IMG/VR virus record: IMGVR_UViG_2874956758_000005
Direction: 5' to 3' (one strand)
DNA: 40,694 nucleotides
Origin: a virus
Taxonomy: Duplodnaviria > Heunggongvirae > Uroviricota > Caudoviricetes
The notes beneath the pieces are model-generated. The model made no database searches. It was not told where the DNA came from and was given only the letters and a program-made list of their open reading frames with translations. This document shows, piece by piece, positions 1-40,694 of the stretch. Every line of letters begins with the position of its first letter. Position 1 is the first letter of the stretch. The position numbers and the translations under genes are program-made.

Positions 1-582
1 TTACTCTGCAGGTGAAGTCGGCCACTCAATATCAGGTGCAGTTGATGTATCAACACGGTTCAGCAACACCCGATACTTCTTCCAGGCTTCCAGCAACAAG
101 GTTTCTTCCTCCGTTGCGATCTCCAGATCCACAGCATCCTGAAGCGGCGCTATATGCTCACTGGCTACCTGCATCAGGCTGTTTTTTGTTTCTTCCGCCT
201 CCCGGATCCGGAACAGTTTTTCTGCTTCCGTATCCTTCACCCAGACTGTACCGTTCCACTTCTGAAACTCCCCTTCCGGGGATAACCAGGTGACATTTTC
301 CGGTAATGAGCCGAGTTCAGAAATAAATAACGCGTCGCCGGAAGCCACGTCATAGACCGTTTTACCCCGATGGTCTTCAACGAGATGCCACGATGCCTCA
401 TCACTGTTGAAAACAGCCACAAAGCCAGCCGGAATATCTGGCGGTGCAATATCGGTACTGTTTGCTGGCAGACCTGTATGAGGCGGAATATATGCGTCAC
501 CTTCACCAATAAATTCATTAGTTCCGGCCAGCAGATTATAAATTGTTATGGTCCGTGGTTGTTCACTCATTCTGAATGCCAT
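1..582 (-). CDS. tfa: tail fibre assembly protein (Tfa)
   Basis: 193-aa ORF immediately downstream of side tail fibre gene; stop codon complement at 1-3; typical lambdoid Tfa size and position. Confidence 0.8.
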
Positions 583-3419
583 TATGCAAGCCTCACAATA
601 TAGTTAAATGCGATGTTTTTGACGGTGTTTTCCGCGTTACCAGCAGCGTTAACGGTGATGGTGTGTCCATGTGAACCAATCGCAACGGAGTGCGTATGAG
701 CACCAATACCGACAGTATGTGCATGTGCGCCTGCGCTTGCAGCAGTGCCGGACAGCGAGTGGGTATGAGCACCATCTGATGATGTCTTCCCTGCATTACG
801 AGTCTGGCCACTACCGCTTGTTGTGCTCATAATCCCCGCGCTTAGATTTGAAATCGCGGTATAACCATTAGGGAAAATGCTCGTGTTCGTGCCACCAAAT
901 GCACCGGAACTCTTGTGTTGGTGCGCACCGGCACTATTTGCAGTCCCGCTAATACTATGGGTATGCGCCCCGGTGTTATTCGTGGATTTGGTTCCGTAAT
1001 CAAACGACGATGTGTTTTTCGTCCCCAAATCCGTACTGGATGCGCTGGCGCTGTGGGTGTGCGATTTAATGCCGTCCTGTTCCTGAGATAATACGGCCCG
1101 ACCACTGGCGGGCTTGCCCTTAATCGTCCAGCCACGCATATCAGGGATCACGCCTGACGGATAAGCCGCTGCAAGTTTCGGGTATGCAGATTTGTCAAAA
1201 GCCTGCCCCTGCATCAGGGCATAGCCAGACGGAACGGTATCTGATGGCCACGGGATTGGTGCGCCAGGCGGATAAAACTGCTCTGATGGCGTATAGAGTG
1301 AATAAACTGTACCGTCCGTTAACCCTTCCGGCTTATTAGCAGAATATGCTGGTGACGTATGAATCGTCACGCTGGCATTACTGGTATAATCCCATTGAAT
1401 ATTTACACCAGTCGCATAATTTCCGATTGCAACGTAAATATCGTAAGTATCACCAGATGTATTAACCCAGGCAAAATTTGTAAACCCTGTCAATGTGCGC
1501 TGCCATAAAGCACCAGTAATCCCCTTCGGATTACCATTACCTGCACGTAAAACAAGTTCAGATATACCTGCCTGTTGAGGTGACCCCACGTTAAATCCAG
1601 CGCCACCAATCAACGTAATTGAAACAACAGAACTCGCCTGTGGCATGGTTACCGTTGCTAATTTGAACCAACCAGCACCACCGCTGAATGACATTGTTGT
1701 TGAGTTAAGCGTACCAATATCTTTCGGCGTCAGTGTTATATCCGCTGAAAGCGCCTTACCATTCACCTTACGGGCAGAAGGTACCCGACCATTCGCATTG
1801 TCATTAGCTGCTTTCACTGCTTTCGGTGTCGCAGCAAGCGTTTCAGATGTGCTGTTGGTTGCACTACTGAGCTGGACAATTCCTTTTTGTGCTGTCGTAG
1901 CGTCCTGTGCGGTGTATTTCCCGTTAGCCAGGTCATACGCGGCCTTAACGGCTTTTGGCGTTGCCGCCTGTGACTCGGAAGTGCTGTTGGTCGCACTGCT
2001 GAGCTGTACTATCCCCTTTTTCGTCGTGCTCGCATCCTCAAGCGCCACGGCGGATGCAATATCCTCTGCCCGTTTTGCTGCTGTCTCGGCGCGCGTTGCC
2101 GCGGATTCCGCCGTACTTTTGCTCTGTGCTGCCGCTGCCGCACTGCCAGCAGCCTCTGTCGCCTTCGTGGATGCCGTCGTGGCGCTGCCCCTCGCTGCTG
2201 ACGCCTGTCTGGTCGCCTCATCTTTTGAAGCAGACGCAGATGATGCCGATGACGCCGCCGAACTGGCGGACGATGCGGCAGCCGTTTTTGAGGATTCTGC
2301 GCTGGTTTCCGACGCTTTCGCGTTCGTTTCGGATGTCTTCGCTGCGGAAGCAGACCTCGCTGCTGCGCTGGCCTGTTCAGTGGCTTCGCCAGCCTTCGTT
2401 GTGGCTGTTGAAGCGGATGATGCGGCGCTTTCTGCCGATTTTCCGGCGGCGGTGGCACTGACTGCTGCCTCCTCTGCCTTAATGGACGCCTCACGGGCCG
2501 ATGATGCAGCTGCTGTCTCAGAGTCTGCCGCAGCTGAGGCGCTCTGTTCCGCTGCCGTTTCAGAAGACTTAGCATTCGTCTCGGACGTTTTTGCCGCCTT
2601 CACGGAATTTCCTGCCGCCGTTGCCGAGGAGGCTGCACTGCTGGCGCTTGTGGAGGCGTTCGTTTCTGATGATTTTGCCGCCTCTTTGGAGGCCGCCGCA
2701 TCTCTGGCTGAAGTGGCGGCTTCTGACGCTTTCGTCGTCGCAGTGGATGCAGAAGTGGCTGCTGATTTTTGTGACGCTGCAGCATTCGTTTCTGACGTTT
2801 TCGCCGCACCGGCACTGGTGGCCGCCGCGCTTTTTGAGGACTCTGCAGCGGCAGCACTTTTTTCCGCTTCAGTGGCCTTTGTTGATGCCGTTCCTGCGCT
2901 GGAAGACGCTGACTGAGCCGACGTCGCGGCCTGTCCGGCTGACGTGCTGGCTGCACGCGCTGAGCCTGCAGCATCAGTCGCATGGGTTGCCGCCTCACGG
3001 GCAGATGTGCCGGCATCACTGGCTGACTTCTTCGCGGCTGCCGTGTTCTGTGCCACCGCGGACGCGTTACGCGCCACCTCTTCCACCATCAGTTCAAAAC
3101 GGCGCAGAGCCTCCGGACGGGCATCATCCTCCGTCATGGCACCGAGAAAATCATTCAGCGTACCGGGTCGGGAATCTTCATACACGGTGATGGTCCCGGC
3201 ATGTGACGGCGGGAATCCTTCCACCAACAGAATAACGCTGTACTGACCGTACTCAACGTCCATGCTGTAACGCCCGGCTTCATCCGGATTTTCTGAGGCC
3301 AGCGTGTTCACCACCACCGTGGTGCTGTTACGTTTTGCTTTCAGCTGGATTGTGCAGTTCTGTACCGGTTTTCCTGTGCCGTCTTTCAGTACACCTGAAA
3401 TCTTTACTGCCATATTCAC
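582..3419 (-). CDS. stf: side tail fibre protein (Stf) with Ala/Ser/Thr-rich shaft and tail-fibre repeats
   Basis: 945-aa ORF; N-terminus [17 protein letters not shown] typical of lambdoid Stf; two tandem ~37-aa [14 protein letters not shown]...[10 protein letters not shown] repeats; His/Gly/Thr-rich C-terminus. Confidence 0.85.
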
Positions 3420-3422
3420 CCC

Positions 3423-3450
3423 ACAAAAAAGCCCGCCTGAACCGGCGGGC
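3423..3450 (-). terminator. rho-independent terminator between lom and stf
   Basis: 7-bp GC stem GCCCGCC/GGCGGGC (3431-3450) followed on the minus strand by a T6 run (plus A-run 3425-3430). Confidence 0.55.
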
Positions 3451-3477
3451 TGTCATAACACTGTGTTACCTGGCTAA

Positions 3478-4077
3478 TCAGAACTTATAACCGACACCCA
3501 CGATGAAATCGTCAGTGCGCCAGTCGCCACTGCCGGAGCCTTCATAAGCAATATCAATGGCCACGGATTCGGTCGGGTTAAACTGCACGCCAGCTCCCCA
3601 CGCCAGAGACGTGTTGCTGTGGCGACCGTCATCACTTCCGGTCAGCACGTCGTGCGTTTTCCCCTTGTTGTCAGTTACGCGGAGATAATCCCCGGAAAAA
3701 GTCGACACACGGCTGTAAGCCACGCCCGCCATCGCATACGCACTGAACCATTCATTCACGCGCACAGACGGCCCCGCCATCACGCTGAACCAGCGGTTAC
3801 GCACGGAATCTTCATGCCAGCGGGTATCGCTGTAACGGGTAAGCTGGCGATTCTTGTCTCCTGCATAGCTGAATGACGTCACCATCCCCAGCGTATCCGT
3901 AAACTCATAACGGTATTTCACGTTAATCCCGTTCAGATCATCGCTGCCGGGAACGTTGGTCGAGGCATGAAGATACCCCGCGCTCAGCGTGGACTGATGT
4001 TCAGACGCCCATGCAGGCGCACCGGATACGGCCAGACAAATGGCTGCGGACAAAATTGCTGCACAAACTTTACGCAT
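3478..4077 (-). CDS. lom: Lom/Ail-family outer membrane protein
   Basis: 199-aa ORF with signal peptide and C-terminal aromatic ...GVGYKF beta-barrel terminus; sits between J and stf as in lambda. Confidence 0.9.
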
Positions 4078-4146
4078 AATTACCTCTCGCTTTTCTGCAA
4101 TAAAAAAGGCACCATTTCTGGTGCCCTTATATGGGTTATAACAATT

Positions 4147-7100
4147 TCAACGAATACTGATGCCGGAAGCCGCTTTTTTGGTCACAATCACCGTACAGTC
4201 GGTGATATTGCCTGCCCCCTGATTGCCTTTCTGGAAAATCTTAAACTCCAGAGTGACGCTACCACCACCACTAGGCATATCAATAACTGCACTGTAACTA
4301 CCGGGAATGGCCCCTTTAGTTTCTCTGGATGCGATTAATACGCCGTTTTTGCGAACTTCAAAACCATAACCCGTGTATCGCGTGCCTCCTAGGTTATTTC
4401 CGCTCCCCGGATCGTCATACGCTATACCGTTAAAAATAATGGGCGGAATAATAATCTGGCGGTCAAAGTTATGATCATCGCTGATGGTGACTGTAACCGT
4501 ACCGTTTGGTGTTTCCGTGTTACCCCACGTACCGACTTTTTTCGGGAAGGCTTTTGATACAGCTTTAACGAAATCCCCTCTGACCTGGGTCGCCTCCAGC
4601 ATGCCCTTAATCGTACAGTTTTCATTTACCGTGACATTGTTGAGCGTCCCGGCGTTCGCATTCACACTGCCACTGATATCCGCATTTTTAGCGGTCAGCT
4701 TTCCGTCTGATGTCAGGGAAAATACCGGAGGACTGCCACCACTGGTAATGGTGGGGGCCGTCAGGCGCTTCAGGAACACGTCGTTCATGAATATCTGGTT
4801 GCCCTGCGCCACAAACATCGGCGTTTCATTCCCGTTTGCCGGGTCAATAAACGCGATACGGTTAGCGGCAACCAGAAACTGGCTCAGCTTGCCTTCCTCT
4901 GTGTCCTCCATGCTGAGGCCAATACCCGCGACATAATGTTTGCCGTCTTTGGTCTGCTCAATTTTGACGCCCCACATGGCATTCCATTTATCGTTAGCGT
5001 CCTTCCACTCTTTCGAAAACTCATCCAGTCTGCTGGCGTTATCCTCCGTCAGATCAACTTTTTCCAGCAGCTCTTTACCGAGATGGGATTCGGTTATCTT
5101 GCCTTTGAAAAAATCCAGGTAACCTTCCGCATCATCGCTCGCCCGACCGACGGCCTCCACGAATGCCGATTTGCCAACGGTGTTCACACTGCGGATATAA
5201 AAGTAATAATCATGGCCCGGTTTGATATTGATACTGGCGGCTATCCAGTACAGCCCCGTGCCAAGGTAGCGGGCTGTGGTTTCAACCTGCCTGATATCGG
5301 TAATCCGCGTTTCCGAGAACCAGAACTCAAACTGTACCGTCGGATCATAAACCGCAAGATGCGGCGTGGCAGTTATCTGAAAATAGCCCGGCGTCAGCTC
5401 AATCCGCGACGGCGCTGCCGGGGCGGCAATCCGGAACGATACCGACGCCGGATCGCCCTGCTGTCCCCGGGCATTTACCGCCCGGACCGTCAGCGTGTAA
5501 CGCCCCAGCGCCAGCTGCCTGAAGCGGTAAGTGGTTTCCGTCGTCCGGGCCGTGCTGACCAGCCGCTCACTGCCGTCATCGGCGGCCACGGTCAGGCGAA
5601 GCATAAAGCTCACACCCTTCACTACCTTCGGCGTGTCCCAGCGCGCCAGCACCTGATATTCCCCGCTGTCTGCGGTGACTTCGGCGGTCAGGTGCTGCAC
5701 CGCTGGCGGCGTGACACCATTCACCGTGCCGCTCTGGTCGCCGTCAAAGTACGCCCCGTTATCCACGATGGCCTCTTTTTCCGGTACATGCTGCACGGCG
5801 GTGATGGCATACGTGCCGTCGTCGTTCTCACGGATACTCACGCAGCGGAACAGGCGCTGGCGCAGCGTCGGCAGCTTCAGCCCCCACACGCTGTATTCAG
5901 CAACACCGTCAGGAACACGGCTCACTTTCACCTTCACGCCGTCGGTGACGGACTGAACCTCCACGCTGATCGGATTGCCACTTCCGTCAACCAGGCTTAT
6001 CAGCGTGGTACCGGAGGATGGCAGCGTGATTTCACGGTCGAGCGTCAGCGTCCGGGTCTGGCTGTTTACCGCCAGCACGCGCCCGCCGATGCTGATACCG
6101 GCATAGTCATCATCACAGATTTCAATGACATCGCCCGGCACATGGCGAAGCCCTTCTGCGCCCACGCTGAAGTCCACGGTCTGCGTTTCCAGCAGTTCTG
6201 TTTTAATCAGCCACAGCCCGGCGCGATGTGCCTGCCCCCGGCTGGTACAGCCAAAGGCATCCATTTTCGTGACGTTACGACCGTAACGGGCAATGGCCTG
6301 CGTATCCTCCACAAGCTCTGTCGCCGTCTCCCAGCCGTTATTCGGGTCAATCCAGTTCACCTCAACGGCATTATGGCGGTCCTTCAGGGCGCTGAAGCTG
6401 TAGCGGAACGGCGCACCATCATCCGGCATCACCACATTACTGCGGTTATAGGTCCACACCTTATCTGATGGCCGGTCCTGCACGAACGTCAGCGTCTGCC
6501 CGTTCCATACCGGCATACAGCGCATCGCCGAGCAGAAATCACTGAGCACATCCCACGCCTTGCGCTGTGTGGTCAGGTAAGCGTTACAGATGATGCGCGG
6601 CTCCGTGCCGCCAAAGCCATCCGGCACCGACTGGTCGCAGTACTGGCCGATGACATACAGCGCCCATTTATCCACATCTGCCGCACCAAGACGTTTCCCC
6701 ATGCCGTAGCGCGGGTGGGTCAGCATATCCCACAGACACCAGGCCATGTTGTTGCTGTATGCCGGTTTTAACGTTCCGTCCCAGATACCGCTGTATTGCC
6801 GCGTCTGCGGGTTATAATTCGACGGCACCTGCAGAATGCGCCCGCGAAGATGATAATTACGGCTCACCTGCTGGCTGCCGAACTGCTCCGAATCCACCTG
6901 CACGCCGACCAGTGCCGTGTTCGGGTAGCACTGTTTCACATCGATGATTTCGGTGTATGACGACCAGAGCGTTTTGTTCTGCAGCTGGTCTGTGGTGCTG
7001 TCCGGCGTCATTCTGCGCATCCGGATATTAAACGGGCGCGGCGGCAGGTTATCCACCACCACCGAGGCCAGATACTGCGAGGTGGTTTTGCCCTTAATGG

Positions 7101-23644: not shown

Positions 23645-23720
<76 letters not shown>

Positions 23721-23723
23721 TAT

Positions 23724-23798
<75 letters not shown>

Positions 23799-23800
23799 CT

Positions 23801-23877
23801 GGACCGCCACCGGGGACTCGAACCTCGCACACTCAACTTAAAGGGTTGACGCTCTTTCCTGATGAGCTAGTGGCGGT
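23801..23877 (-). tRNA. tRNA-like gene, anticodon loop CCUUUAA (UUU, Lys-type?), atypical C33
   Basis: Perfect acceptor CCGCCAC/GTGGCGG, D arm GCTC...GAGC, anticodon stem TCAAC/GTTGA, T-loop TTCGAGT, CCA end; T-stem A-C mismatch. Confidence 0.5.
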
Positions 23878-23878
23878 T

Positions 23879-23954
23879 GGTGGCCCTTGCTGGATTTGAA
23901 CCAGCGACCTGGCGATTATGAGTCGCTCGCTCTCACCACTGAGCTAAAGGGCCG
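23879..23954 (-). tRNA. tRNA-Ile2/Met-type (anticodon CAU), ileZ-like
   Basis: 76-nt cloverleaf GGCCCTT...AAGGGCC acceptor, anticodon loop CTCATAA, T-loop TTCAAAT, CCA end. Confidence 0.7.
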
Positions 23955-25198: not shown

Positions 25199-26257
25199 TC
25201 ATGCTTTCCACTTCAGGACACCCGAATTTCTCGCGTGCATTAAAAAACGAATCAGCAACAACAGCTGGCTGCCGTGTTTTTCTTCAAAATCTTTTACCCC
25301 GGCGTGCAGTTCGTTATGACATTTACGGCACAGCGGAATAACAAACAAATCATCAGCCTTTGTTCCCATCCCTCCCAGTCCATGACCAATGATGTGATGC
25401 GGATCATCTGCCTGATTGCCACACGTCATGCATTTCTGCGTTTTTACCCAGCGCGTGTATACGGGCATCTCTTCCCGTTGTGGTTTCTGGCGCTGGAGAT
25501 ACTGAGCCGGAGAATCCGGATCAACGGCAATGCTGACCACCGTCTTTTCCTGTGGTGGATTCTGTTGCTGGTGGGCGTGAGGCAACGGCGCAATATTTTT
25601 TGTGCGCTGCTTCAGTATGCTGGTGGCGGTCTGCGCTCCCGGTACGATATCGCTTTCGCGGTATACTGAGCGGATTTTTTCTACCGGTAATCCCAGCGAA
25701 CGACGTAATACTGCCTCCGGTAGCGCGTCCGCCACCTGATTGCAGAGCGCCCACCAGGATAATTCAGCCAGAGATAATTCACGCTCCTGCGTACCGCTTA
25801 TTGCGTGACCGATGACGTCAATCATCCATGCTGACAGGTTTTGATGAGCAAGTTGCCCGAGTGATTCGGATGTCTGGTCACGCAACTGGTTGTCGCAGTG
25901 CCAGCACAACACCATTGCGCCGGTACCATAACGGTGAATGACGGTTTCGCTGTGATGATAATCGCCGTGTGGCCACTGGCAGGATTTAACGTGGCGTAAC
26001 AGCCAGTCAGACAGTGCACCAGCACCGCCAGCAGCACGAATCACACGCTCATCGCTGAAAAATGGCAGTAATGATTTGTCCTCCGCCAGCGGCTGGCGAA
26101 CGGCAGGAACGACCCCGGACGGCAGATTACGCATGCTTTTCGGTTCCGGCTCCACCAGTACCCGGGTATTGTGGAATACCGGCATGGATTCACGGCCTGG
26201 CTTAAGGACCACCAGCCCGAGTTCCGGAACCAGAACAGGTCGAAGTAATACCCGCAC
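25199..26257 (-). CDS. DUF968-family prophage protein (YdfU-like) with C-terminal HNH-like Cys/His motif
   Basis: 352-aa ORF; C-terminal ...CMTCGNQADDPHHIIGHG...CRKCHNELH; typical nin-region position upstream of rusA/Q. Confidence 0.7.
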   Translation of the reverse strand: MRVLLRPVLVPELGLVVLKPGRESMPVFHNTRVLVEPEPKSMRNLPSGVVPAVRQPLAEDKSLLPFFSDERVIRAAGGAGALSDWLLRHVKSCQWPHGDYHHSETVIHRYGTGAMVLCWHCDNQLRDQTSESLGQLAHQNLSAWMIDVIGHAISGTQERELSLAELSWWALCNQVADALPEAVLRRSLGLPVEKIRSVYRESDIVPGAQTATSILKQRTKNIAPLPHAHQQQNPPQEKTVVSIAVDPDSPAQYLQRQKPQREEMPVYTRWVKTQKCMTCGNQADDPHHIIGHGLGGMGTKADDLFVIPLCRKCHNELHAGVKDFEEKHGSQLLLLIRFLMHARNSGVLKWKA

Positions 26258-26672: not shown

Positions 26673-26930
26673 ATGCGTACAACCCAACAATTCAGCATTA
26701 CATTAACTAACGAGATGGCTGACATGGTGCGCGCCCGTGTGGCTTCCGGTGCCTATGCTTCAGAAAGCGAGGTCATTCGTGAAGGGCTTCGCGCACTGAA
26801 TGAGCGCGATAAAGCAATCGAAGCGTGGTTAACGCATTCAGCCGCCCCCTCTCTTGATTCTATCCGCGAAAATCCAAACAACGGACGCTCCATTTCACAG
26901 GTTCGCGCCGCGATTCGATCCGGAAAGTAA
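26673..26930 (+). CDS. ParD/CopG-type ribbon-helix-helix antitoxin
   Basis: 85-aa ORF MRTTQQFSITLTNEMADMVRARVASGAYASESEVIREGLRAL...; GAGG RBS; 5 bp upstream of toxin gene. Confidence 0.7.
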   Translation: MRTTQQFSITLTNEMADMVRARVASGAYASESEVIREGLRALNERDKAIEAWLTHSAAPSLDSIRENPNNGRSISQVRAAIRSGK

Positions 26931-26935
26931 TCTGC

Positions 26936-27247
26936 ATGACATATGAAGTCATCATTACTCCTGAGGCCGAACAACAAATAATCAACCTGCACAGATATAT
27001 AACTGAGAAAGCAGGGAACGTCATTGCTGACAATTATGCCAATGCACTTCTTGATTATCTTGATGGGTTTTCTACATTCCCGCATCGGGGCAATAAACGC
27101 GATGATATTCGCCAGGGGATGCGGGTAACTCATTTCCGCCACAGAACGATTATTGCTTTTGCCGTTGATGACAATAAAGTTTTTATCGCAGGCGTATACC
27201 ACGGTGGGCAAATCTATGAAACCGATTTTTTATCCAGTGCACCGTAA
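26936..27247 (+). CDS. ParE/RelE-family toxin
   Basis: 103-aa ORF directly following antitoxin; family-typical layout (N-terminal helices, C-terminal beta region ...FAVDDNKVFIAGVYHGGQ). Confidence 0.7.
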   Translation: MTYEVIITPEAEQQIINLHRYITEKAGNVIADNYANALLDYLDGFSTFPHRGNKRDDIRQGMRVTHFRHRTIIAFAVDDNKVFIAGVYHGGQIYETDFLSSAP

Positions 27248-27287: not shown

Positions 27288-28370
27288 TCATTTTCTCTGG
27301 CTGATCTTTACCGGATAACCATCCCGAAGATCAATTAAGTGCTCCGGTTCAGAAGCAAACCATGCATAAGATCCCCACGCCAATTCTGGTATTGCCTTTT
27401 TAAAAGGCAGAGCACTTCTGTCCATAAATGCCGTAAGGAATGCAAGATTTTTCTCGCTGAACCCAGCGTCAATAGCCAAATGAGTGAGAGTAACTTTTCG
27501 TTCCCTGTTTATAGGCCCATCTGTCGCAACTACTTCAGTGAAAACTACAAGCATGTCCGAACCCGTTCGGTCCTCTCCCAAATCAATCAAAATAATATCT
27601 GGAAGTGCTTTTGAGGCATCAATATTCAGCCCCAATGCTTTTGCCAATACATCATCCTGAGCAACAACTTTATTCCCGGATTCAGACAACCAGAGCACAG
27701 TTGGATTCTTAAGAAAATTAGGAGCAAAAACTTCGATGACGGCCTTAGCTATTGTACTTGACGGGCCCGGAGCTAAAGTTCTCTTCTCTCCATTTGGGAA
27801 AGTGACGACTACGGCATCAGCAGCAATCACTGCCCCTGATTTCAATAAACGCAACCTGGCAAGAGCGGCTTTGTTCAAATGATTTTCTTGCCAGGAACTT
27901 ATTGCACTCAGCAGCGAATCTCCTTCAAGCCCGGCATCAAAGAGTGCTGCAAAAGAGCGATTCAAACTGTAACGAGGACGAGAGGATGTGGTGGGTATAC
28001 CTTTACGCTCAACAATTGCATTGCAAGGTATTAGGCCATTTTTTATAGTTTCATCACGTATTGGCTCACGCGTATTTTCCGCATACCATGCATCAGCAGG
28101 CCTTATCTTTTGTTTAGAGAAAGTCATCTTTACCCAGCTTTCTCTGGACGCATCATCAGTAAGAGCAGCCTGCGAATCTCCCATACTTACAACCTGGCTG
28201 GGCCTTATCCATCGCCCCAGCCCCTCAACCGCACCAGCATAAAACATGACAAAAATTGTTTTTGCAGCTATTTCCCGAATTAAATATCCACGATTCTCAG
28301 TCCCTTCAGGGAAAATTAATTGTAATCTTTCCCGGATAACATTCAATGGGGGAACAACAGGCAGATTCAT
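27288..28370 (-). CDS. type II restriction endonuclease, BsuBI/PstI family (putative)
   Basis: 360-aa ORF translationally coupled (ATGA overlap) to upstream N6-adenine methyltransferase; AT-richer than flanking phage genes. Confidence 0.6.
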   Translation of the reverse strand: MNLPVVPPLNVIRERLQLIFPEGTENRGYLIREIAAKTIFVMFYAGAVEGLGRWIRPSQVVSMGDSQAALTDDASRESWVKMTFSKQKIRPADAWYAENTREPIRDETIKNGLIPCNAIVERKGIPTTSSRPRYSLNRSFAALFDAGLEGDSLLSAISSWQENHLNKAALARLRLLKSGAVIAADAVVVTFPNGEKRTLAPGPSSTIAKAVIEVFAPNFLKNPTVLWLSESGNKVVAQDDVLAKALGLNIDASKALPDIILIDLGEDRTGSDMLVVFTEVVATDGPINRERKVTLTHLAIDAGFSEKNLAFLTAFMDRSALPFKKAIPELAWGSYAWFASEPEHLIDLRDGYPVKISQRK

Positions 28371-30199
28371 GCAATCATCACTCCATAGAAACCAGCGATA
28401 GTTCTCTCAATAATCCGTCTGTGGACGCCAGCATCAATTAACGATTGAATCTCCATCACCTGCTCCAGAGAAGGCAACGGGATTGAATTCAATTCATAGG
28501 CCGAAACAGCAACACTTCCGCTTATACACCTGAACGCCCGATCGACAACATGCGAATTAAGTAGCATATCAATAACATCAGGGCGAACCGCAGAGAACAA
28601 TCCGTTTGAATATACAATATTAATATGGTTTTCAACTACTACGCCACCAGTTTCATCTATAAATCCCTGAGGTAAAATTGCCGCTAAAATCCTTCTGTCC
28701 TGTTCCTTCGATGTTGTCCGCTGAACAAGCACACATTCAGATTTTGTCACAAGGAAACCCTGTTGTGGGGTTATATCGATATAGGGAACATGATTTTTTC
28801 TGTCTGCACTAAAACGAAAACCAGCTGAAGTTATTGATTCCGCCCAGACTAATGGGTAGCTATTTTTTCCTTTCGTCGTACGCAACTGCGACTTAAATCG
28901 ATTCCAGACTAACTGACCTGTAGAGACTGAGTATCCCAGATCAGCTAAACGCGTAGACATCTGTTTTAATACATTAAGAAAACAGGCATCATCTTTAACG
29001 CGTGGCAAAAGCCACGTTGCTCCACCTTTTTCTATATCAACATTACCTATTTTCTCAATTTTTGCTTTGTTCAACCCCTTAGGGACAAGTGAGGATACCT
29101 GGGCCCGAACTTTATGTTCTCCCGCCTTGAATGCTGTCAACATTGTTTCCTGGAGAACATCGTCAAAGACCCCATCCCTGTCAGCGACGAAATCAAGGGC
29201 ATACGGAGTAGTTTTTTCGGTCAAAAGGGTTCGCAGCGCGGTGAAATACTGCCCACCAAGAAAAGAAGTTGGCGTAAGAAATGCAATAACTCCTGTTTTC
29301 TCTTTAACCATGCGAACAGCTAAGTCGGTGAACAATCCATATAGATTTGCATGACCAAATAACGAACGAGAATATTTTTCTCTCGTTTTAATATCGAGAG
29401 TGACACGTCCGTAAGGCGGATTCCCTACCACAAGATCATAACCAGAAAATTTATCTTGCTGAAGCGCATCAGCAACAATAATTGTATCTTCAGGCAATCT
29501 ACGTTTTACCTTTACACATAGTGGCATTAGTACAGATTCGAGCAATACCAAACTCATCCAAGCCGCAAATGGATCGATTTCTATCCCCTTTAAACGACGA
29601 CTGATTCTCCTCAACATCCATTCAGGGGAAGACCCCTTGTCTTTTTTTAACATTCGAATGGCTACTGGTGCCAAAAATGCACCGCCACCACACGCAGGAT
29701 CAATAACCGATGCATGAGAAAAATCAACACCAGACTTTTCAGCCAGGTCCAAGAGACGCGCTACCAAAGGTGGGGGGGTATAGTAAGCCCCCAATTCCGA
29801 ACGGTAAGCGGATGGCAGCATTACCGTATAAATTGACCCAATCAGATATCCAGCGTCCTCCGCCGGAAATTGAGCAATAAGCTCACCTGTTCGTTCAGCG
29901 AGCTCGCGTGCATCACATGGAATGTCTTCTATGTAAACAGTGTGCGGTACTGCCCTCATTTTAATGCTGCTTTTTTGCTTTTTTGCAAGGGTATCCCAAT
30001 ATGCAGCTACGATGCTGAAGCAGTATGAGCGGGCATGCATCAACCTTGACTGCCCGGTTTTGTAATTGCCCGCATAACCTTTGGCCATGGCTTTACAAGT
30101 TTGATATCTTTCCAGATTAGAAAACTCATTATCTGTAAAAAAATCAAAATGTTGCACATTCATAATGTAAAATCCTAATGTATCAAACATGCGGGCCAT
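28367..30199 (-). CDS. N6-adenine DNA methyltransferase (Eco57I/PstI-type, gamma-class)
   Basis: 610-aa ORF with AdoMet motif I VIDPACGGGAFL followed by catalytic motif IV VVGNPPYGR; start could be ATG 30199 or 30163. Confidence 0.8.
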   Translation of the reverse strand: MARMFDTLGFYIMNVQHFDFFTDNEFSNLERYQTCKAMAKGYAGNYKTGQSRLMHARSYCFSIVAAYWDTLAKKQKSSIKMRAVPHTVYIEDIPCDARELAERTGELIAQFPAEDAGYLIGSIYTVMLPSAYRSELGAYYTPPPLVARLLDLAEKSGVDFSHASVIDPACGGGAFLAPVAIRMLKKDKGSSPEWMLRRISRRLKGIEIDPFAAWMSLVLLESVLMPLCVKVKRRLPEDTIIVADALQQDKFSGYDLVVGNPPYGRVTLDIKTREKYSRSLFGHANLYGLFTDLAVRMVKEKTGVIAFLTPTSFLGGQYFTALRTLLTEKTTPYALDFVADRDGVFDDVLQETMLTAFKAGEHKVRAQVSSLVPKGLNKAKIEKIGNVDIEKGGATWLLPRVKDDACFLNVLKQMSTRLADLGYSVSTGQLVWNRFKSQLRTTKGKNSYPLVWAESITSAGFRFSADRKNHVPYIDITPQQGFLVTKSECVLVQRTTSKEQDRRILAAILPQGFIDETGGVVVENHINIVYSNGLFSAVRPDVIDMLLNSHVVDRAFRCISGSVAVSAYELNSIPLPSLEQVMEIQSLIDAGVHRRIIERTIAGFYGVMIA

Positions 30200-33585: not shown

Positions 33586-33836
33586 GAATCAACTCCCATC
33601 AGCTTTTTCGTAGTAGTTTTATTCCTGCCAATAGTTAAAATTGCATCGGCAGAAAATAATCCGTTTGATGCAAGAGCGATTTTTTCAGCGTAATTTGTTT
33701 CGCCGGTATATTCTGTGCGAGGCAATTTTCCGTTATCCATCCATTTATAGATTGCTCTTTGGCTGACACCACAAACGTCGGCCACAACAGCAACGCGAAC
33801 AGTTTTGATTACATCTTCAAGTGTTTTCTGGTTCAT
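33582..33836 (-). CDS. Cro-like HTH regulator
   Basis: 84-aa ORF from ATG 33836 (GAGGGTGAT RBS); HTH ...VCGVSQRAIYKW...; divergent from repressor gene. Confidence 0.7.
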   Translation of the reverse strand: MNQKTLEDVIKTVRVAVVADVCGVSQRAIYKWMDNGKLPRTEYTGETNYAEKIALASNGLFSADAILTIGRNKTTTKKLMGVDS

Positions 33837-33915
33837 ATCACCCTCACAATGTGAACTTTGAGTACATGCTATAACAGAACTGACAGTACATTCAAGAGCG
33901 AATATCATTGAACTT
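33837..33915. promoter_or_regulatory. divergent cro/cI promoter-operator region (OR-like)
   Basis: 79-bp gap; two AGTACAT 7-mers (33861, 33885); minus-strand TTGAAT -16/17- TGTTATAGC extended -10 pointing at cro. Confidence 0.5.
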
Positions 33916-34335
33916 ATGGTTCATGAAGATAAAGCGCGTAAAGAGTTCGCCAGTAGGCTTGCGCTAGCCTGTGAAAACGCTGGTTATGAACAACATGGAA
34001 GGCAGGCAGAAATTGCCCGTCGAATGAAATTAACACCAAAAGCGGTTAGCAAATGGTTTAATGGCGAAACAATTCCTCGCCGGGAGAAATTAAGGGAATT
34101 AGCAACACTAATAGGAACAACACCAACCTATCTTTTGGGAGAGGATACAGAAGAAAGTGGACAGGTACGTTTCTATCAGGAGTTAAATCCAAGACAAAAA
34201 ATCATCATTGACCTTCTGGACGAGCTCCCTGACAGTGAGACAGATGAACTTTTAAAAACTCTTGAAGAGAAAAAACAGAAGTACAATGCAATTTACGAAG
34301 AGTTAGCACGAAAGAAAAAACAAAAAGCCTCTTAA
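33916..34335 (+). CDS. cI-like repressor, HTH_XRE only (no LexA-type peptidase domain)
   Basis: 139-aa ORF; HTH ...EIARRMKLTPKAVSKWFNGETIP...; C-terminus is a Glu/Lys-rich helix, no Ser/Lys protease motifs; no SD (leaderless-like). Confidence 0.65.
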   Translation: MVHEDKARKEFASRLALACENAGYEQHGRQAEIARRMKLTPKAVSKWFNGETIPRREKLRELATLIGTTPTYLLGEDTEESGQVRFYQELNPRQKIIIDLLDELPDSETDELLKTLEEKKQKYNAIYEELARKKKQKAS

Positions 34336-34403
34336 ACCAGCATAAATCCGGTAGCGCCTTCCTCCGGGTTTGTGCTTCACTTTATCCCATCTCATTTTTT
34401 TAC

Positions 34404-34460
34404 ACACAAAATGTACTATAAGTACTTTACAACAATGAACGCAAAGTACATTATATACCT
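34404..34460 (+). promoter_or_regulatory. putative leftward promoter/operator (OL/PL-like)
   Basis: ATGTACT (34411), AGTACT (34421), AGTACAT (34445) repeats with TTTACA -17- CATTAT promoter-like spacing. Confidence 0.35.
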
Positions 34461-34632
34461 GCCACCCACCCCGCCCCACAGAATGCAGGGCAATACTTCG
34501 AGTTACCAGGCAGTGGTCAGGGGTTAAGTAGCCAGCCCGAGGCGTAAGAACATGACGGCAGGGTTCAACTTTAATAACTATGCAGCAGGTTTTTGTTCCG
34601 CTACCCCGGCGTTAAGGGGAAATGAGGTCAGC

Positions 34633-35807: not shown

Positions 35808-36155
35808 TCACCCTCCTGAGGGTTGGTAATTAAGGAGTTCTCCACGGGTGAGGTGGAGTGCGTGCGCCGGACACGGGTGAGCATCCGGCACTGACAGTTT
35901 ACTGAAAGGATATGTCCCTGAAAAGTCAGGGCATAACGCGAAAGCGCACGGCGAGGCTGTTAGTTCATAAATGGTCTGTCGTTAAATTTTCGTCGACCGT
36001 GCGCTTCCGGTTGTGGCAATCCGCGAAATGGCGCGGCGGTAAGTATGGCGGGGTTATTCCTTCCCCGTTGAGGACACCGGGTTGTCAGGTTGACCATACG
36101 CTTAAGTGACAACCCCGCTGCAACGCCCTCTGTTATCAATTTTCTGGTGACGTTT

Positions 36156-36200
36156 GGCGGTATCAGTTTTACTCCGTGACTGCTCTGCCGCCCTTTTTAA
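36156..36200 (+). terminator. candidate intrinsic terminator
   Basis: GGCGG...CCGCC imperfect hairpin followed by CTTTTTAAA. Confidence 0.4.
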
Positions 36201-36367: not shown

Positions 36368-36556
36368 ATGAAAACGTTATTACCAAACGTTAATACGTCT
36401 GAAGGTTGTTTTGAAATTGGTGTCACTATCAGTAATCCTGTATTCACTGAAGAGGCCATTAACAAAAGAAAACACGAACGGGAGTTATTAAATAAAGTAT
36501 GCATTGTTTCAATGCTGGCCCGTTTACGTCTGATGCCAAAAGGATGTGCACAATGA
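36368..36556 (+). CDS. hypothetical small protein (62 aa)
   Basis: ATG 36368 with GAGGG RBS; stop overlaps next start (ATGA). Confidence 0.4.
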   Translation: MKTLLPNVNTSEGCFEIGVTISNPVFTEEAINKRKHERELLNKVCIVSMLARLRLMPKGCAQ

Positions 36557-36741
36557 ATCCAGTATTTGCACTTATTCTGACGGTTTTTCTTGTTTCCGGA
36601 GAGCCAGTTGATATTGCAGTCAGTGTTCACAGAACAATGCAGGAATGTATGGCCGCAGCAACCGAACAGAAAATTCCAGGCAACTGTTATCCGGTCGATA
36701 AAGTTATTCACCAGGATAACGAAATCCCGGCAGGATTTTAA
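36553..36741 (+). CDS. small protein with signal-peptide-like N-terminus (62 aa)
   Basis: ATG 36553 with AAGGA 8 nt upstream; MNPVFALILTVFLVSGEPVD..., two Cys. Confidence 0.45.
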   Translation: MNPVFALILTVFLVSGEPVDIAVSVHRTMQECMAAATEQKIPGNCYPVDKVIHQDNEIPAGF

Positions 36742-36834: not shown

Positions 36835-39276
36835 ATGAGCACTGATAAAGAAGAATTTGCACTATATTGCGAAGCAAAAAATGACAAAGTAAGAAAACGC
36901 CTGGGAATTAAAGGTGGTTTTTACTGGACTACAGCAAAAAAATTATCTGTTGCAATCTCCCGCTGCATTACCGCAATGGATGACAACGATTATGATGAAG
37001 ACGACTTTAAAAAACCCGTCCGCGTCAATTTGCCCGTTGTTGACGACCTTCCGCCAGAAGGCGTGTTTGATACTGAATTCTGCAACCGCTATGAAAAAGG
37101 CGGGAAAGATGGCATCACAATGACATTTATCGGCCCTTCCCCCTCTGTTCAGGACAAACCAGCCAGCACTGACAATACCAACATCAACGGCGAAGACATG
37201 ACTGAGATTGAGGAGAGCATGCTTCTGCCTGTCTCCGGTCAGGAACTGCCCATTCGTTGGCTTGCTCAACACGGCAGCGAAAAACCAGTAACGCACGTTT
37301 CACGCGACGAACTCCAGGCATTACACATTGCACGGGCTGAAGAACTACCGGCTGTTACTGCCCTGGCTATTTCGCATAAAACCAGTCTGCTCGACTCGCT
37401 GGAGATTCGCGACCTCCACAAACTGGTTCGTGACACTGACAAAGTTTTCCCTAATCCTGGTAATTCAGACCTGGGACTAATAACTGCTTTTTTCGAAGCA
37501 TACCTGGACGCTGACTACACTGATCGGGGTCTGCTGACAAAAGAGTGGATGAAAGGAAATCGTGTTTCACGCATCACCCGCACGGCTTCCGGTGCTAATG
37601 CTGGCGGTGGGAACAAAACCGATCGCAATCCGAATTTAGTACACACCCTCGACACACTGGATGTGGAGATTGCAGCAGCCACACTTCCGATGGATTTTAA
37701 TATTTATGAAATTCCGGGCAGCGTTTATCGTCGCGCAAAAGAAGTAGTTCTGAACAAAGAAAGTCCGTTCAAAGAATGGTCCGCAGCACTTCGTGCAACC
37801 CCGGGTATTCTGGACTATTCCCGCGCCGCTATTTTTGCACTTATCCGAAGCGCACACCCTGAATTCTATCACTACCCGGGACGCCTTCAGGGGTATATCA
37901 ACGCCTATTTGACGGAAACTGATCACGAGAACCCCAGCAAGGAAACTCTCACAGCTGCCCGGCATACGCCGGAAAAAGATATCCTGGAAGAAATTAACCG
38001 CGAGGTGGTTACTGAGCGTGAAACAGAAGAAGAAAAACCACAACCATCTGACGCAATGGCAGGTGAACAGGCAACAACTGAAACAATGGAACCGGATACA
38101 ACTGAACATGGCCAGAACGCGCAGTCGCTGGATGCTCAGTCGCAGGTGAGTTCCGCTAACCAAGTAAAAGTCACCGCTGACGAAGTAAACAAAATTATGC
38201 AGGCAGCCAATATCAGCCAGCCTGACGCCGATAAGTTACTTGCTGTATCGCGTGGTGAATTTGTTGAGGGGATTAGCGACCCTAATGATCCGAAATGGGT
38301 TAAGGGGATCCAGACCCGCGATTCTGTGAACCAGAACCAGCAAGAAACGGAACAGAACGACCAGAAAGCGGAACAAAACAGCCCAAATACACAACAAAAC
38401 GAGCCAGAAACGAAACAACCTGAACCAGTAGTGCAACAGGAACCGGAAAAGATCTGCACCGCCTGCGGTCAGAGCGGTGGCGGCAACTGCCCTGATTGTG
38501 GTGCGGTGATGGGTGACGCAACATACCAGGAAATATTCGATGGAGAGAATCAGCCTGAAGTTCAGGAAAATGATCCGGAGGAAATGGAAGGCACTGCGCA
38601 TCAGCACAAGGAGAACACTGGCGGCAATCAGCATCATGCCAGCGATAGTGAAACTGGCGAGGCGTCAGATCCCTTAATTAAGGCGAACGGTCATCATAAT
38701 CTCACATCCACCAGCAGAGCGGGGATTCATCTGATGATCGACCTTGAAACCATGGGAAAAAATCCCGATGCCCCGATTATCTCAATAGGTGCAATATTTT
38801 TCGATCCGCAAACCGGAGATATGGGACCGGAATTTAGTAAGACTATCGATCTGGAAACTGCTGGCGGAGTCATTGATCGGGACACCATTAAATGGTGGCT
38901 TAAACAATCACGCGAAGCGCAATCTGCCATTATGACCGATGAAATCCCGTTAGATGATGCACTGTTACAATTGCGGGAATTTATCGACGAAAACTCCGGT
39001 GAATTTTTTGTTCAGGTCTGGGGAAATGGAGCCAACTTCGACAACACGATTTTGCGCCGTTCATACGAACGGCAGGGGATCCCCTGCCCGTGGCGTTACT
39101 ACAACGATCGCGATGTACGCACAATCGTTGAGCTGGGGAAAGCCATAGACTTCGATGCCAGAACGGCTATTCCATTCGAAGGTGAGCGCCATAATGCACT
39201 TGATGACGCCCGTTACCAGGCAAAATACGTTTCAGTTATCTGGCAAAAACTGATCCCGAGTCAGGCTGATTTTTAA
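36835..39276 (+). CDS. exodeoxyribonuclease VIII (RecE)-like protein with C-terminal DEDDh 3'-5' exonuclease domain
   Basis: 813-aa ORF; N-terminal half RecE-like (…NGEDMTEIEESMLLPVSGQELPIRWLAQHGSEKPVTHVSRDELQALHIARAEELPAV…); central CxxC-x7-CxxC; C-terminus has MIDLET..., GNGANFDNT..., HNALDDARYQ. Confidence 0.75.
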   Translation: MSTDKEEFALYCEAKNDKVRKRLGIKGGFYWTTAKKLSVAISRCITAMDDNDYDEDDFKKPVRVNLPVVDDLPPEGVFDTEFCNRYEKGGKDGITMTFIGPSPSVQDKPASTDNTNINGEDMTEIEESMLLPVSGQELPIRWLAQHGSEKPVTHVSRDELQALHIARAEELPAVTALAISHKTSLLDSLEIRDLHKLVRDTDKVFPNPGNSDLGLITAFFEAYLDADYTDRGLLTKEWMKGNRVSRITRTASGANAGGGNKTDRNPNLVHTLDTLDVEIAAATLPMDFNIYEIPGSVYRRAKEVVLNKESPFKEWSAALRATPGILDYSRAAIFALIRSAHPEFYHYPGRLQGYINAYLTETDHENPSKETLTAARHTPEKDILEEINREVVTERETEEEKPQPSDAMAGEQATTETMEPDTTEHGQNAQSLDAQSQVSSANQVKVTADEVNKIMQAANISQPDADKLLAVSRGEFVEGISDPNDPKWVKGIQTRDSVNQNQQETEQNDQKAEQNSPNTQQNEPETKQPEPVVQQEPEKICTACGQSGGGNCPDCGAVMGDATYQEIFDGENQPEVQENDPEEMEGTAHQHKENTGGNQHHASDSETGEASDPLIKANGHHNLTSTSRAGIHLMIDLETMGKNPDAPIISIGAIFFDPQTGDMGPEFSKTIDLETAGGVIDRDTIKWWLKQSREAQSAIMTDEIPLDDALLQLREFIDENSGEFFVQVWGNGANFDNTILRRSYERQGIPCPWRYYNDRDVRTIVELGKAIDFDARTAIPFEGERHNALDDARYQAKYVSVIWQKLIPSQADF

Positions 39277-39337: not shown

Positions 39338-39607
39338 ATGAGCGAACAGTACCTGATAACGCTCGACGAGTGGAAACCAAAACGGTTCAGTCTCCCAATA
39401 ACAAACACTACCCTGGTGAAATACGGAAAACTAGGATACATCGTTCCAAGGCCACAAAAAATTCGTGGGCGTTGGCTGATAGATCGCCGAGCAGTATTTG
39501 TTGGGCCTGGTGAAACGGGAATTGCGCCGGAAATTCATACTGGCGATGATGATGCACTGAAGGAGATTTTAACTCATGTCACCGAGGCCACGAAAAAACA
39601 GCACTGA
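39338..39607 (+). CDS. xis: putative excisionase
   Basis: 89-aa ORF from ATG 39338 (GGAG RBS) immediately upstream of and overlapping the integrase gene. Confidence 0.5.
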   Translation: MSEQYLITLDEWKPKRFSLPITNTTLVKYGKLGYIVPRPQKIRGRWLIDRRAVFVGPGETGIAPEIHTGDDDALKEILTHVTEATKKQH

Positions 39608-40694
39608 CGTAGCCGGTCTTTACGAAAAGTTTGATCGCAGAACTGGCAGAGTTTACTACCAGTATAAAAATCCTGTGACTGGAAAATTTCACGGACTCGG
39701 AACAGACAAAGGTAAGGCAGAAAAAATCGCTTCCACAGCCAATCAGCGAATAGCTGCAGCAGAAGCTGAATATTTCATGCGCAAAATTGATGAAAGTCCG
39801 TCAGCAACAAAACGTCGGGGTATCAGATTAAAGGCATGGGTTGATCGATATCTGAAAATACAGGACACGCGACTGAAAAATGGAGATATTGCAGCTACAA
39901 CTCACAAAGAAAAAACTCGAATGGCTGCATACCTGGTTTCCCGTCTGGGAAACCACCCATTGAAAGAACTGGAAGTAAGAGACTTTGCATTAATACTGGA
40001 TGAGTGGCTGGATAAAGACATGGTCAGCACAGCGAGAGTAAATCGTGGATTATGGGTTGATATTTATAAAGAAGCACAGCATGCAGGGGAAGTTCCTCCT
40101 GGATGGAATCCTCCGGAGGCTACCCGTAAACCGATCCCTAAAGTAACCAGAGCCAGGCTCACCATGGAAGACTGGCAAAAAATTTACAATGCAACGCCTG
40201 AAAAACACTTTATCCGTAACGCAATGCTTCTTGCGATTGTTACTGGTCAGCGCCGTGATGACATTTGCCACATGCGTTTTTCAGATGTGTGGAACGAACA
40301 CTTGCATATCACCCAGGGAAAAACCGGAATGCGTCTGGCGTTACCGCTTACACTACGCTGTGATGCCATTGGGATAACGTTAAAAGAAGTTATTGATGGG
40401 TGCCGAGACAGAATATTAAGTCCATATCTAATCCATAGTCGGCACCAGAAACAACCGAAGCCGATGAGTAAAGACAACCTGAGCGACTACTTTGCCAAAG
40501 CACGGGATCTGGCTGGGATAATTCCACCAGCAGGAAAAACTCCGCCAACATTTCATGAACAACGCTCTCTATCAGAACGGCTGTACCGTGCACAGGGTAT
40601 CGATACAAAAACATTACTAGGACATAAAGTCCAGGCAACCACCGATCGCTATAACGATACTCGAGGTCAGGAATGGGTTAAGTTGGTTATTTAA
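39576..40694 (+). CDS. int: lambda-family tyrosine integrase
   Basis: 372-aa ORF; catalytic region ...LAIVTGQRRDDICHMRFSDV...HEQRSLSERLYRAQ...LLGHKVQATTDRYNDTRGQEWVKL with R, H-x-x-R and Tyr; stop at window end. Confidence 0.9.
   Translation: MSPRPRKNSTDVAGLYEKFDRRTGRVYYQYKNPVTGKFHGLGTDKGKAEKIASTANQRIAAAEAEYFMRKIDESPSATKRRGIRLKAWVDRYLKIQDTRLKNGDIAATTHKEKTRMAAYLVSRLGNHPLKELEVRDFALILDEWLDKDMVSTARVNRGLWVDIYKEAQHAGEVPPGWNPPEATRKPIPKVTRARLTMEDWQKIYNATPEKHFIRNAMLLAIVTGQRRDDICHMRFSDVWNEHLHITQGKTGMRLALPLTLRCDAIGITLKEVIDGCRDRILSPYLIHSRHQKQPKPMSKDNLSDYFAKARDLAGIIPPAGKTPPTFHEQRSLSERLYRAQGIDTKTLLGHKVQATTDRYNDTRGQEWVKLVI

Follow-up and report, generated by a model that had tools for sequence, protein, structure and literature searches.

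The gene analysed here lies at positions 36,835 to 39,276 of a 40,694-nucleotide stretch of Caudoviricetes DNA (IMG/VR virus record IMGVR_UViG_2874956758_000005; the whole stretch is called the window below). Its 813-residue product has RecE-type N-terminal modules, followed by an acidic linker with a zinc ribbon and then by a DEDDh exonuclease. The gene is the result of a module exchange, in which the RecE N-terminal modules, the linker and the zinc ribbon were kept and the PD-(D/E)xK nuclease together with the RecT gene was replaced by a DexA-family DEDDh domain. We propose, with a probability of roughly one half, that the protein acts as an annealase-independent 3'-end exonuclease, most likely on DNA, which is delivered by the RecE N-terminal module and processes or destroys ends in the early phage programme. 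We favor this reading because the swap junction is exact, the catalytic residues are invariant, the nuclease domain has a low ratio of nonsynonymous to synonymous substitution rates (dN/dS, 0.19) and a DexA-like fold, no annealase accompanies it, and the gene holds its slot in viable phages. The gene and its modules are the following.

36835..39276, + strand: whole coding sequence, 813 amino acids, ATG start (open reading frame (ORF) listing; Pfam PF06630 and PF16473)
36835..37641, + strand: module N1, residues 1-269, RecE type (Exonuc_VIII) (PF06630; 92% DNA identity to K-12 recE)
37642..38034, + strand: module N2, residues 270-400, the most widely conserved RecE-N core, folded, with a fold that has no known match
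38035..38679, + strand: acidic Q/E/T-rich linker, residues 401-615, common to RecE (composition; BLASTP and blastn end points)
38455..38499, + strand: zinc ribbon, C541-x2-C544-x7-C552-x2-C555 (sequence; invariance in 60 alleles; weak Pfam DZR match)
38728..39243, + strand: DEDDh 3'-5' exonuclease domain, DexA-like, residues 632-803 (PF16473; AlphaFold2 model; Foldseek)

The protein is 100% identical to WP_128880721.1, named 'exonuclease' in E. coli FDAARGOS_943. A Pfam search of all 813 residues places PF06630 (Exonuc_VIII) at residues 57-189 (E value 3.7e-36), and BLASTP against K-12 RecE aligns residues 58-615 with RecE 50-591 at 58% identity, the alignment stopping at residue 615. The NCBIfam model PRK09709 (exodeoxyribonuclease VIII) matches residues 1-616 with profile positions 1-603 of 877 and scores 940 against a cut-off of 1269; this equivalog cut-off is failed because just the first 603 profile positions align. 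At the DNA level, blastn against K-12 recE recovers nucleotides 37173-37626 at 92% and 38026-38678 at 74%, and nothing past 38678. Since the recE homology ends there, at the end of codon 615, the junction of the swap falls exactly at the domain boundary. The nuclease of K-12 RecE itself, a 5'-3' enzyme, is a PF12684 PD-(D/E)xK domain at residues 615-850 (E value 4.1e-28), within a C-terminal nuclease region of about residues 606-866. The 813-residue protein has no Pfam match to PF12684, and the RecE C-terminal domain used as a tblastn query against the window gives no hit.

The resemblance to RecE of the Rac prophage thus covers Exonuc_VIII, the conserved core, the acidic linker and the zinc ribbon, and extends to the same early-left operon position in a related lambdoid prophage. 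The two differ in the nuclease and in what follows it: RecE is followed by recT, ralR and rcbA, which are absent downstream of the window gene. The sequence-only reading, an earlier interpretation made from the letters of this DNA, had proposed a RecE-like N-terminal half and a DEDDh rather than a PD-(D/E)xK C-terminus. Both proposals are borne out, the first by the PF06630 match and the RecE alignment and the second by the hidden Markov model (HMM) search, the catalytic residues, the predicted fold and the missing PF12684. The same reading had singled out a CxxC-x7-CxxC element in the middle of the protein. The element is present, and its four cysteines are unchanged across 60 distinct alleles, but it is not a special feature: K-12 RecE has CxxC-x7-CxxC at the same place, within the aligned stretch, so the zinc ribbon is common to RecE. 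Among the long RecE-N family representatives from other lineages, just 5 of 58 carry a zinc-ribbon-like motif.

The C-terminal domain matches PF16473 (Rv2179c-like) with an E value of 2.4e-67 and 226.5 bits against a cut-off of 27, over profile positions 2-177 of 177; a weaker Pfam match to RNase_T overlaps it. The catalytic motifs are located as follows.

38740..38748, + strand: codons D636-L-E638, Exo I, the DxE of MIDLET; aligned with DexA D7 and E9, invariant
39040..39042, + strand: codon D736, Exo II, in FDNT; aligned with DexA D119, invariant
39190..39207, + strand: codons H786 to D791, Exo III, the H-x4-D of HNALDD; aligned with DexA H186 and D191, invariant

All five catalytic residues (D636, E638, D736, H786 and D791) are unchanged across the 60 alleles, over which the domain has a dN/dS of 0.19 by the Nei-Gojobori method. 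The corresponding N-terminal values of 0.43-0.60 are unreliable, as unrelated N1 modules were aligned together. An AlphaFold2 model of residues 616-813 has a mean predicted local distance difference test score (pLDDT) of 86.6 and a predicted template modeling score (pTM) of 0.83. With this model, Foldseek returns T4 DexA (8KEN/8KEL) as the best structure in the PDB (E value 1e-10, template modeling score 0.73), followed by RNase T, REXO2/Orn, DnaQ domains and Cap18; the 50 best matches listed include no PD-(D/E)xK protein. The predicted fold, with T4 DexA nearest and RNase T and Orn/REXO2 next, agrees with the DnaQ- and RNase T-like motifs that the sequence-only reading had pointed out. A sequence search of the PDB identifies DexA as the sole solved relative; the E value is 1.7e-6 with the single sequence as query and falls to 5e-14 when a profile is used. 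DexA degrades DNA in the 3'-5' direction, belongs to the same Pfam family, has the same fold and shares all five catalytic residues. The two differ as follows: identity is about 28% over 68% of the domain, and DexA, which comes from a virulent phage, stands alone at 227 residues, has additional loops and lacks a RecE module. Its W152 and D169 appear to have different equivalents here, in a region where the alignment is uncertain. Because the catalytic residues are invariant, the fold is DexA-like and dN/dS is 0.19, the C-terminal domain is a DEDDh exonuclease under selection and presumably active, and its nearest characterized relative acts on DNA.

We found no annealase to accompany this nuclease. 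RecT, lambda Bet, Exo, Gam and the RecE nuclease domain, used as tblastn queries, detected nothing in the window and nothing in the complete genome of mEp460, which has the layout dicB-ydfD-exonuclease-xis-int. None of the 10 otherwise unnamed window ORFs matches an annealase PHROG (their PHROG assignments are replication proteins, an HNH endonuclease, regulators and a Ren-like exclusion protein), and the RefSeq annotation of the near-identical FDAARGOS_943 prophage contains no annealase; for Erf, Sak, Sak4 and Gp2.5 the search consisted of just the PHROG scan and this annotation, with no direct queries. We then compared 80 related IMG/VR loci, defined by a C-terminal domain at least 95% identical, and found RecT, Bet, Exo or Gam within 6 kb in none of them (0/80). 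In most of these loci the prophage ends 1.1-2.3 kb downstream, past xis and int; the ORF is full length in 70 and truncated in about 10. As a control, recT overlaps the recE stop codon in 80/80 loci that were found with the RecE PD-(D/E)xK domain, which are nearly identical Rac prophages and not independent events. A distant homologue in another assembly (42% identical in the N-terminal region, 58% in the C-terminal domain) has the same order from the repressor to exonuclease-xis-int, again with no annealase. The sequence-only reading had held that no RecT partner lies nearby and that the protein is not a classical RecET recombinase and has some other, unknown role. The count of 0/80 related loci against 80/80 true recE loci, together with the negative tblastn of the window, confirms the first of these claims, and the second stands because both the DEDDh domain and the absence of an annealase hold.

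The host element is a Qin/Rac-like lambdoid prophage, and the exonuclease is the last gene before xis and int in a dicBF-type early operon repressed by DicA/CI. The gene order is cI-like repressor, ydfA/B/C, DicF small RNA (sRNA), dicB, ydfD, exonuclease, xis and int; xis follows directly on the exonuclease gene, as had been read from the sequence. The neighbors are these.

36142-36193, + strand: DicF sRNA (Rfam RF00039, 76.7 bits)
36368-36556, + strand: dicB (RefSeq annotation of the identical segment)
36553-36741, + strand: ydfD/DUF1482 (RefSeq annotation of the identical segment)
39338-39607, + strand: xis, the next gene downstream
39576-40694, + strand: int, after xis; the prophage end adjoins potC

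Because DicF, dicB and ydfD sit upstream in the same operon, the exonuclease is its distal gene. In K-12 this operon is described as a ydfABC-dicF-dicB-ydfDE polycistron, repressed by the CI-like DicA, and the characterized products listed for it are DicF, DicB and YdfD only (PMC10448788). K-12 ydfE is a pseudogene truncated by IS2 that corresponds to the first 256 residues (98% identity) of an 823-residue form of the protein (Qin, locus L205, 4579-5499, IS2E). As ydfE is cut off by IS2E, the K-12 laboratory strain lacks this enzyme. A scan of the + strand between ydfD and the exonuclease gene showed no promoter-like site and no convincing terminator. Shuffled sequence gave at least as many sites overall, and this is weak negative evidence only. 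The FDAARGOS_943 counterpart is a lambdoid prophage integrated beside potC, and the exonuclease gene is intact in both prophages. Viable phages such as mEp460 have the gene in the same slot. Compared with the FDAARGOS_943 potC prophage, the window prophage shows 99.4-99.97% identity, lacks the IS66, IS110 and IS21 insertions of the latter, and differs from it in the immunity (cro/cI) segment (33590-34467) and at the left end (1-4180).

These observations suggest to us a mechanism in which the protein would be made when the CI/DicA-repressed early-left (dicBF-type) operon switches on. The folded RecE-type N-terminal module would bring it to the target of RecE, probably DNA ends or a host factor. 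There the C-terminal domain, probably a dimer like other DEDDh enzymes, would trim free 3' ends, most likely of DNA, by two-metal catalysis. The protein would trim or degrade 3' ends without a partner and would not serve as the resection half of a two-component annealing recombinase. Its purpose would most likely be the processing or destruction of linear DNA ends in the early phage programme. This may be the processing of breaks, on its own or dependent on host RecA, in the manner of T4 DexA in intron homing, or it may equally be an attack on the DNA of co-infecting phages.

Several points weigh against this proposal. The activity, polarity and substrate of the 813-residue protein are predictions from its sequence. 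RNA is a possible substrate, because Rv2179c, the founding member of the Pfam family, is reportedly an exoribonuclease. The supposed targeting is deduced from modularity, because searches with the N-terminal module gave no neighbor in structure or function. Murashko and Vanderpool detected no K-12 transcript that reaches ydfE, which leaves co-transcription of the exonuclease gene presumptive. Finally, the intact copy kept in an insertion sequence (IS)-riddled defective prophage fits a role that benefits the host at least equally well.

This last point leads to an alternative that we consider possible though not probable, namely that the gene encodes a lysogen-protecting defense nuclease of the HREX type, which would be expressed at a low level and degrade superinfecting phage DNA, possibly by reading 5-hydroxymethylcytosine (5hmC). 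In the study that solved the structure of DexA, its stand-alone E. coli homologue EcD degrades the 5hmC-DNA of T4 but not unmodified double-stranded DNA ('HREX', Kang et al. 2025, PMC12153337), and EcD protects from T4 even with leaky expression (PMC12153337). Through the EcD cloning primers we recovered a 189-residue prophage protein (MIDTET...) that is 37-39% identical to the C-terminal domain (E value ~1e-37); the EcD sequence used in this comparison was deduced from these published primers and not taken from its record. The two belong to the same family, are both prophage-borne and both match phrog_255. The exonuclease gene is also near-ubiquitous, often multicopy and intact even in the defective prophage, and DicB of the same operon is an anti-phage protein according to the title of PMC6832061. 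In Salmonella a stand-alone form lies by a DndB-like gene at xis/int, a typical slot for accessory genes.

Against a defense nuclease of this kind, we found no promoter-like site belonging to the gene itself, and its operon is repressed in lysogens. PADLOC-DB 2.0 yields 0 families at an E value of 0.001 or less for the 813-residue protein, from a 2023 library that predates HREX and TONDO. Some differences from EcD and DexA also count here. EcD, which stands alone and has about 189 residues, has lost the tetramer-forming Asp (DexA D90 to Ala), and Ala is likewise found at this position in the stand-alone relatives from Salmonella, Klebsiella and Kluyvera, whereas the window protein keeps the aligned Asp as D708. 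In the same MAFFT alignment, which is uncertain in this region, DexA W152 and D169, the proposed 5hmC-recognition residues, correspond to Y756 and A770. HREX itself rests on one study, and the comparison with EcD on the primer-derived sequence.

A wider version of these ideas, which we regard as doubtful, would make the RecE N-terminal region a portable nuclease-delivery module that lambdoid phages pair with interchangeable nucleases. The DEDDh form, a 3'-5' exonuclease independent of an annealase, would then be either an HREX-like anti-phage nuclease, among the most widespread that prophages encode in E. coli and possibly able to read DNA modifications, or a break-processing enzyme of reversed polarity, a route used by no known phage recombination system. 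The modularity itself shows in several comparisons. The commoner form, the 823-residue YdfE-type proteins of Qin-like prophages and mEp460, occupy the same slot dicB-ydfD-exo-xis-int and are 73.5% identical from residue 270 to the end, with 95-99% identity in the DEDDh domain. Their first ~245-270 residues are unrelated to the window protein, which has the RecE-type Exonuc_VIII there, and the 813- and 823-residue forms align from residue 270 onward only. In an IMG/VR sample the 823-residue form, with its YdfE-type N1, outnumbers the 813-residue form by 46 to 14. By these alignments the protein is a three-fold mosaic of N1, N2, shared linker with zinc ribbon, and exchangeable C-terminal nuclease. 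A model of the N-terminal 400 residues is confidently folded (pLDDT 88.9), and a search for its structural neighbors gave none that was informative.

The RecE-N family comprises 263 representatives at 50% clustering, 81 of which have at least 450 residues; a homologue search with the N-terminal region itself gave just near-identical 813-residue entries, and the diversity comes from the 50%-cluster search. By BLASTP, 15 of the 81 long representatives end in a DEDDh domain, 22 in a RecE-type nuclease and 44 in neither. In ten long-tailed members of the 44 we found no Pfam nuclease and no third nuclease type, and some of these may be partial genes. Many proteins of 600-800 residues have the RecE-N core and no recognizable Pfam nuclease, among them P0249, P0314, P0318, P0320, P0324, P0342, P0350, P0385 and P0389. 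The N-terminal module may work without a nuclease, or these proteins may carry C-terminal domains that have gone unrecognized. Pairing with PD-(D/E)xK, with DEDDh or with no recognizable nuclease is what one would expect if the module works autonomously in delivery or as a scaffold. A 2023 review (PMC11611040) gives no function for the RecE N-terminal domain and calls it dispensable for RecET recombination, but notes that full-length RecE aids linear-linear recombination. Retention of the N-terminal region despite a nuclease of opposite polarity and the loss of the annealase implies a role of its own, independent of RecT and of 5'-3' resection.

The other half of the fusion also occurs separately. 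Salmonella prophages have a stand-alone 189-residue exonuclease immediately ahead of xis/int, in the slot of the fusion gene, which suggests that a small phage exonuclease gene pre-existed and was then fused to the RecE scaffold. One such Salmonella protein, P0113 (189 residues, 59% identical), lies between a DndB-like PF14072 gene and xis/int (locus L121, 5743-9217). The position beside a DndB-like family associated with DNA modification may hint at a defense context. The 183-residue E. coli protein P0074, a further candidate for a stand-alone homologue, was rejected, as it proved to be the terminal piece of a fusion gene that has been broken up. This gene (locus L004, 737-3127) is split into ORFs of 456, 157 and 183 residues, and public databases list the 183-residue piece as a separate protein, a '3'-5' exoribonuclease'. 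Short database entries of this exonuclease family can thus be fragments and not stand-alone enzymes.

Names such as this one bring up RNA as the substrate. A 3'-5' exoribonuclease that would trim phage or host transcripts, DicF-like sRNAs or the genomes of RNA phages appears unlikely to us. The Pfam family is named for Rv2179c of M. tuberculosis, a stand-alone exoribonuclease, many family members bear the NCBI name '3'-5' exoribonuclease', and RNase T, Orn and REXO2 are among the structural neighbors of the domain. However, the sole solved sequence relative is the DNA exonuclease DexA, and Rv2179c, although of the same Pfam family, is so distant that neither phmmer nor even the profile search detected it among the PDB sequences. 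The N-terminal partner module, moreover, is that of a nuclease of DNA recombination. In favor of RNA, some DEDDh enzymes of the ISG20-like kind, which are carried by prophages and have auxiliary domains, block the RNA phages MS2 and Qbeta (2026 preprint, PMC13344964). These TONDO proteins resemble the window protein in combining a DEDDh exonuclease with variable auxiliary domains and in being often prophage-borne, but by their description they are a distinct sequence group of ISG20-like RNA exonucleases of fewer than 500 residues that act on RNA phages.

We find it quite improbable that the protein is a recombination exonuclease after all, a reversed-polarity analogue of RecE that would make 5' overhangs or trimmed 3' ends and work with RecA or with a host or unrecognized annealase. 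Its place in the early-left operon is that of recE/exo, its N-terminal modules are those of RecE, and the phage carries a RusA resolvase. Phage single-strand-annealing systems (Red/RecET) need 3' single-stranded DNA tails, and a 3'-5' exonuclease would destroy these. RecT binding reportedly maps to the RecE nuclease domain, as Muyrers and colleagues are said to have found in 2000, and that domain is absent here. The annealase searches of the window, mEp460 and the 80 loci stand against this alternative as well, whereas T4 DexA, in a passage of PMC12153337, has a part in break-repair-coupled intron homing.

That the gene is a mere leftover of prophage mosaicism, non-functional and without an activity under selection, is hardly credible: lambdoid prophages are mosaics, K-12 ydfE is truncated by IS2 and about 10/80 ORFs are cut short, but the dN/dS of 0.19, the catalytic and zinc-binding residues invariant in 60 alleles, the 70/80 intact ORFs, the presence of the gene in viable phages and an architecture kept in the distant homologue (42% N, 58% C identity) all argue for selection.

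The fusion is not a new entity; it is a very common, already catalogued and uncharacterized variant of RecE and DexA-type exonucleases. The whole gene matches 4744 of 5426 complete E. coli genomes. DNA coding for the DEDDh domain is present in 4069 of the 5426, mostly at 95-99% identity and in up to 7 copies, and the domain occurs in 1623 phage records. PGAP labels the protein 'exonuclease' or '3'-5' exonuclease'; in other annotation pipelines it appears as 'exodeoxyribonuclease VIII'. Our literature searches found no published functional study of a RecE-N/DEDDh fusion. Recombineering makes heavy use of RecE, yet no function is known for the large N-terminal region of this enzyme. The fusion offers an experimental route to that function and is a candidate for a prophage nuclease of wide distribution. 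About 75% of complete E. coli genomes encode the protein, often repeatedly, in the DicF/DicB/YdfD operon. Should it prove to serve in defense or in end processing, conflicts between phages and between phage and host would involve a very common factor that has been overlooked.

The window holds several further features apart from this operon. A type II restriction-modification pair at 27288-30199 (-) consists of a BsuBI/PstI-family endonuclease of 360 residues and a methyltransferase of 610 residues, which PADLOC recognizes with E values of 2.8e-128 and 6.7e-300, respectively. It adjoins a ParD/ParE toxin-antitoxin at ~26673-27247 (+), mapped from the FDAARGOS_943 annotation. Four tRNA genes lie at 23648-23953 (-), between the Q antiterminator and the lysis genes, and are Gly, Thr, Lys and Ile in the RefSeq relative. 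A full-length Rfam IS009 match (RF02111, 222 bits) at 41-239 (-) is in or beside the tail-fiber region at the left window end. A 352-residue DUF968 protein at 25199-26257 (-) adjoins RusA and matches PHROG 96 'HNH endonuclease' over its full length (E value 2.9e-164), and a further HNH endonuclease is annotated by the terminase genes in the near-identical FDAARGOS_943 prophage.

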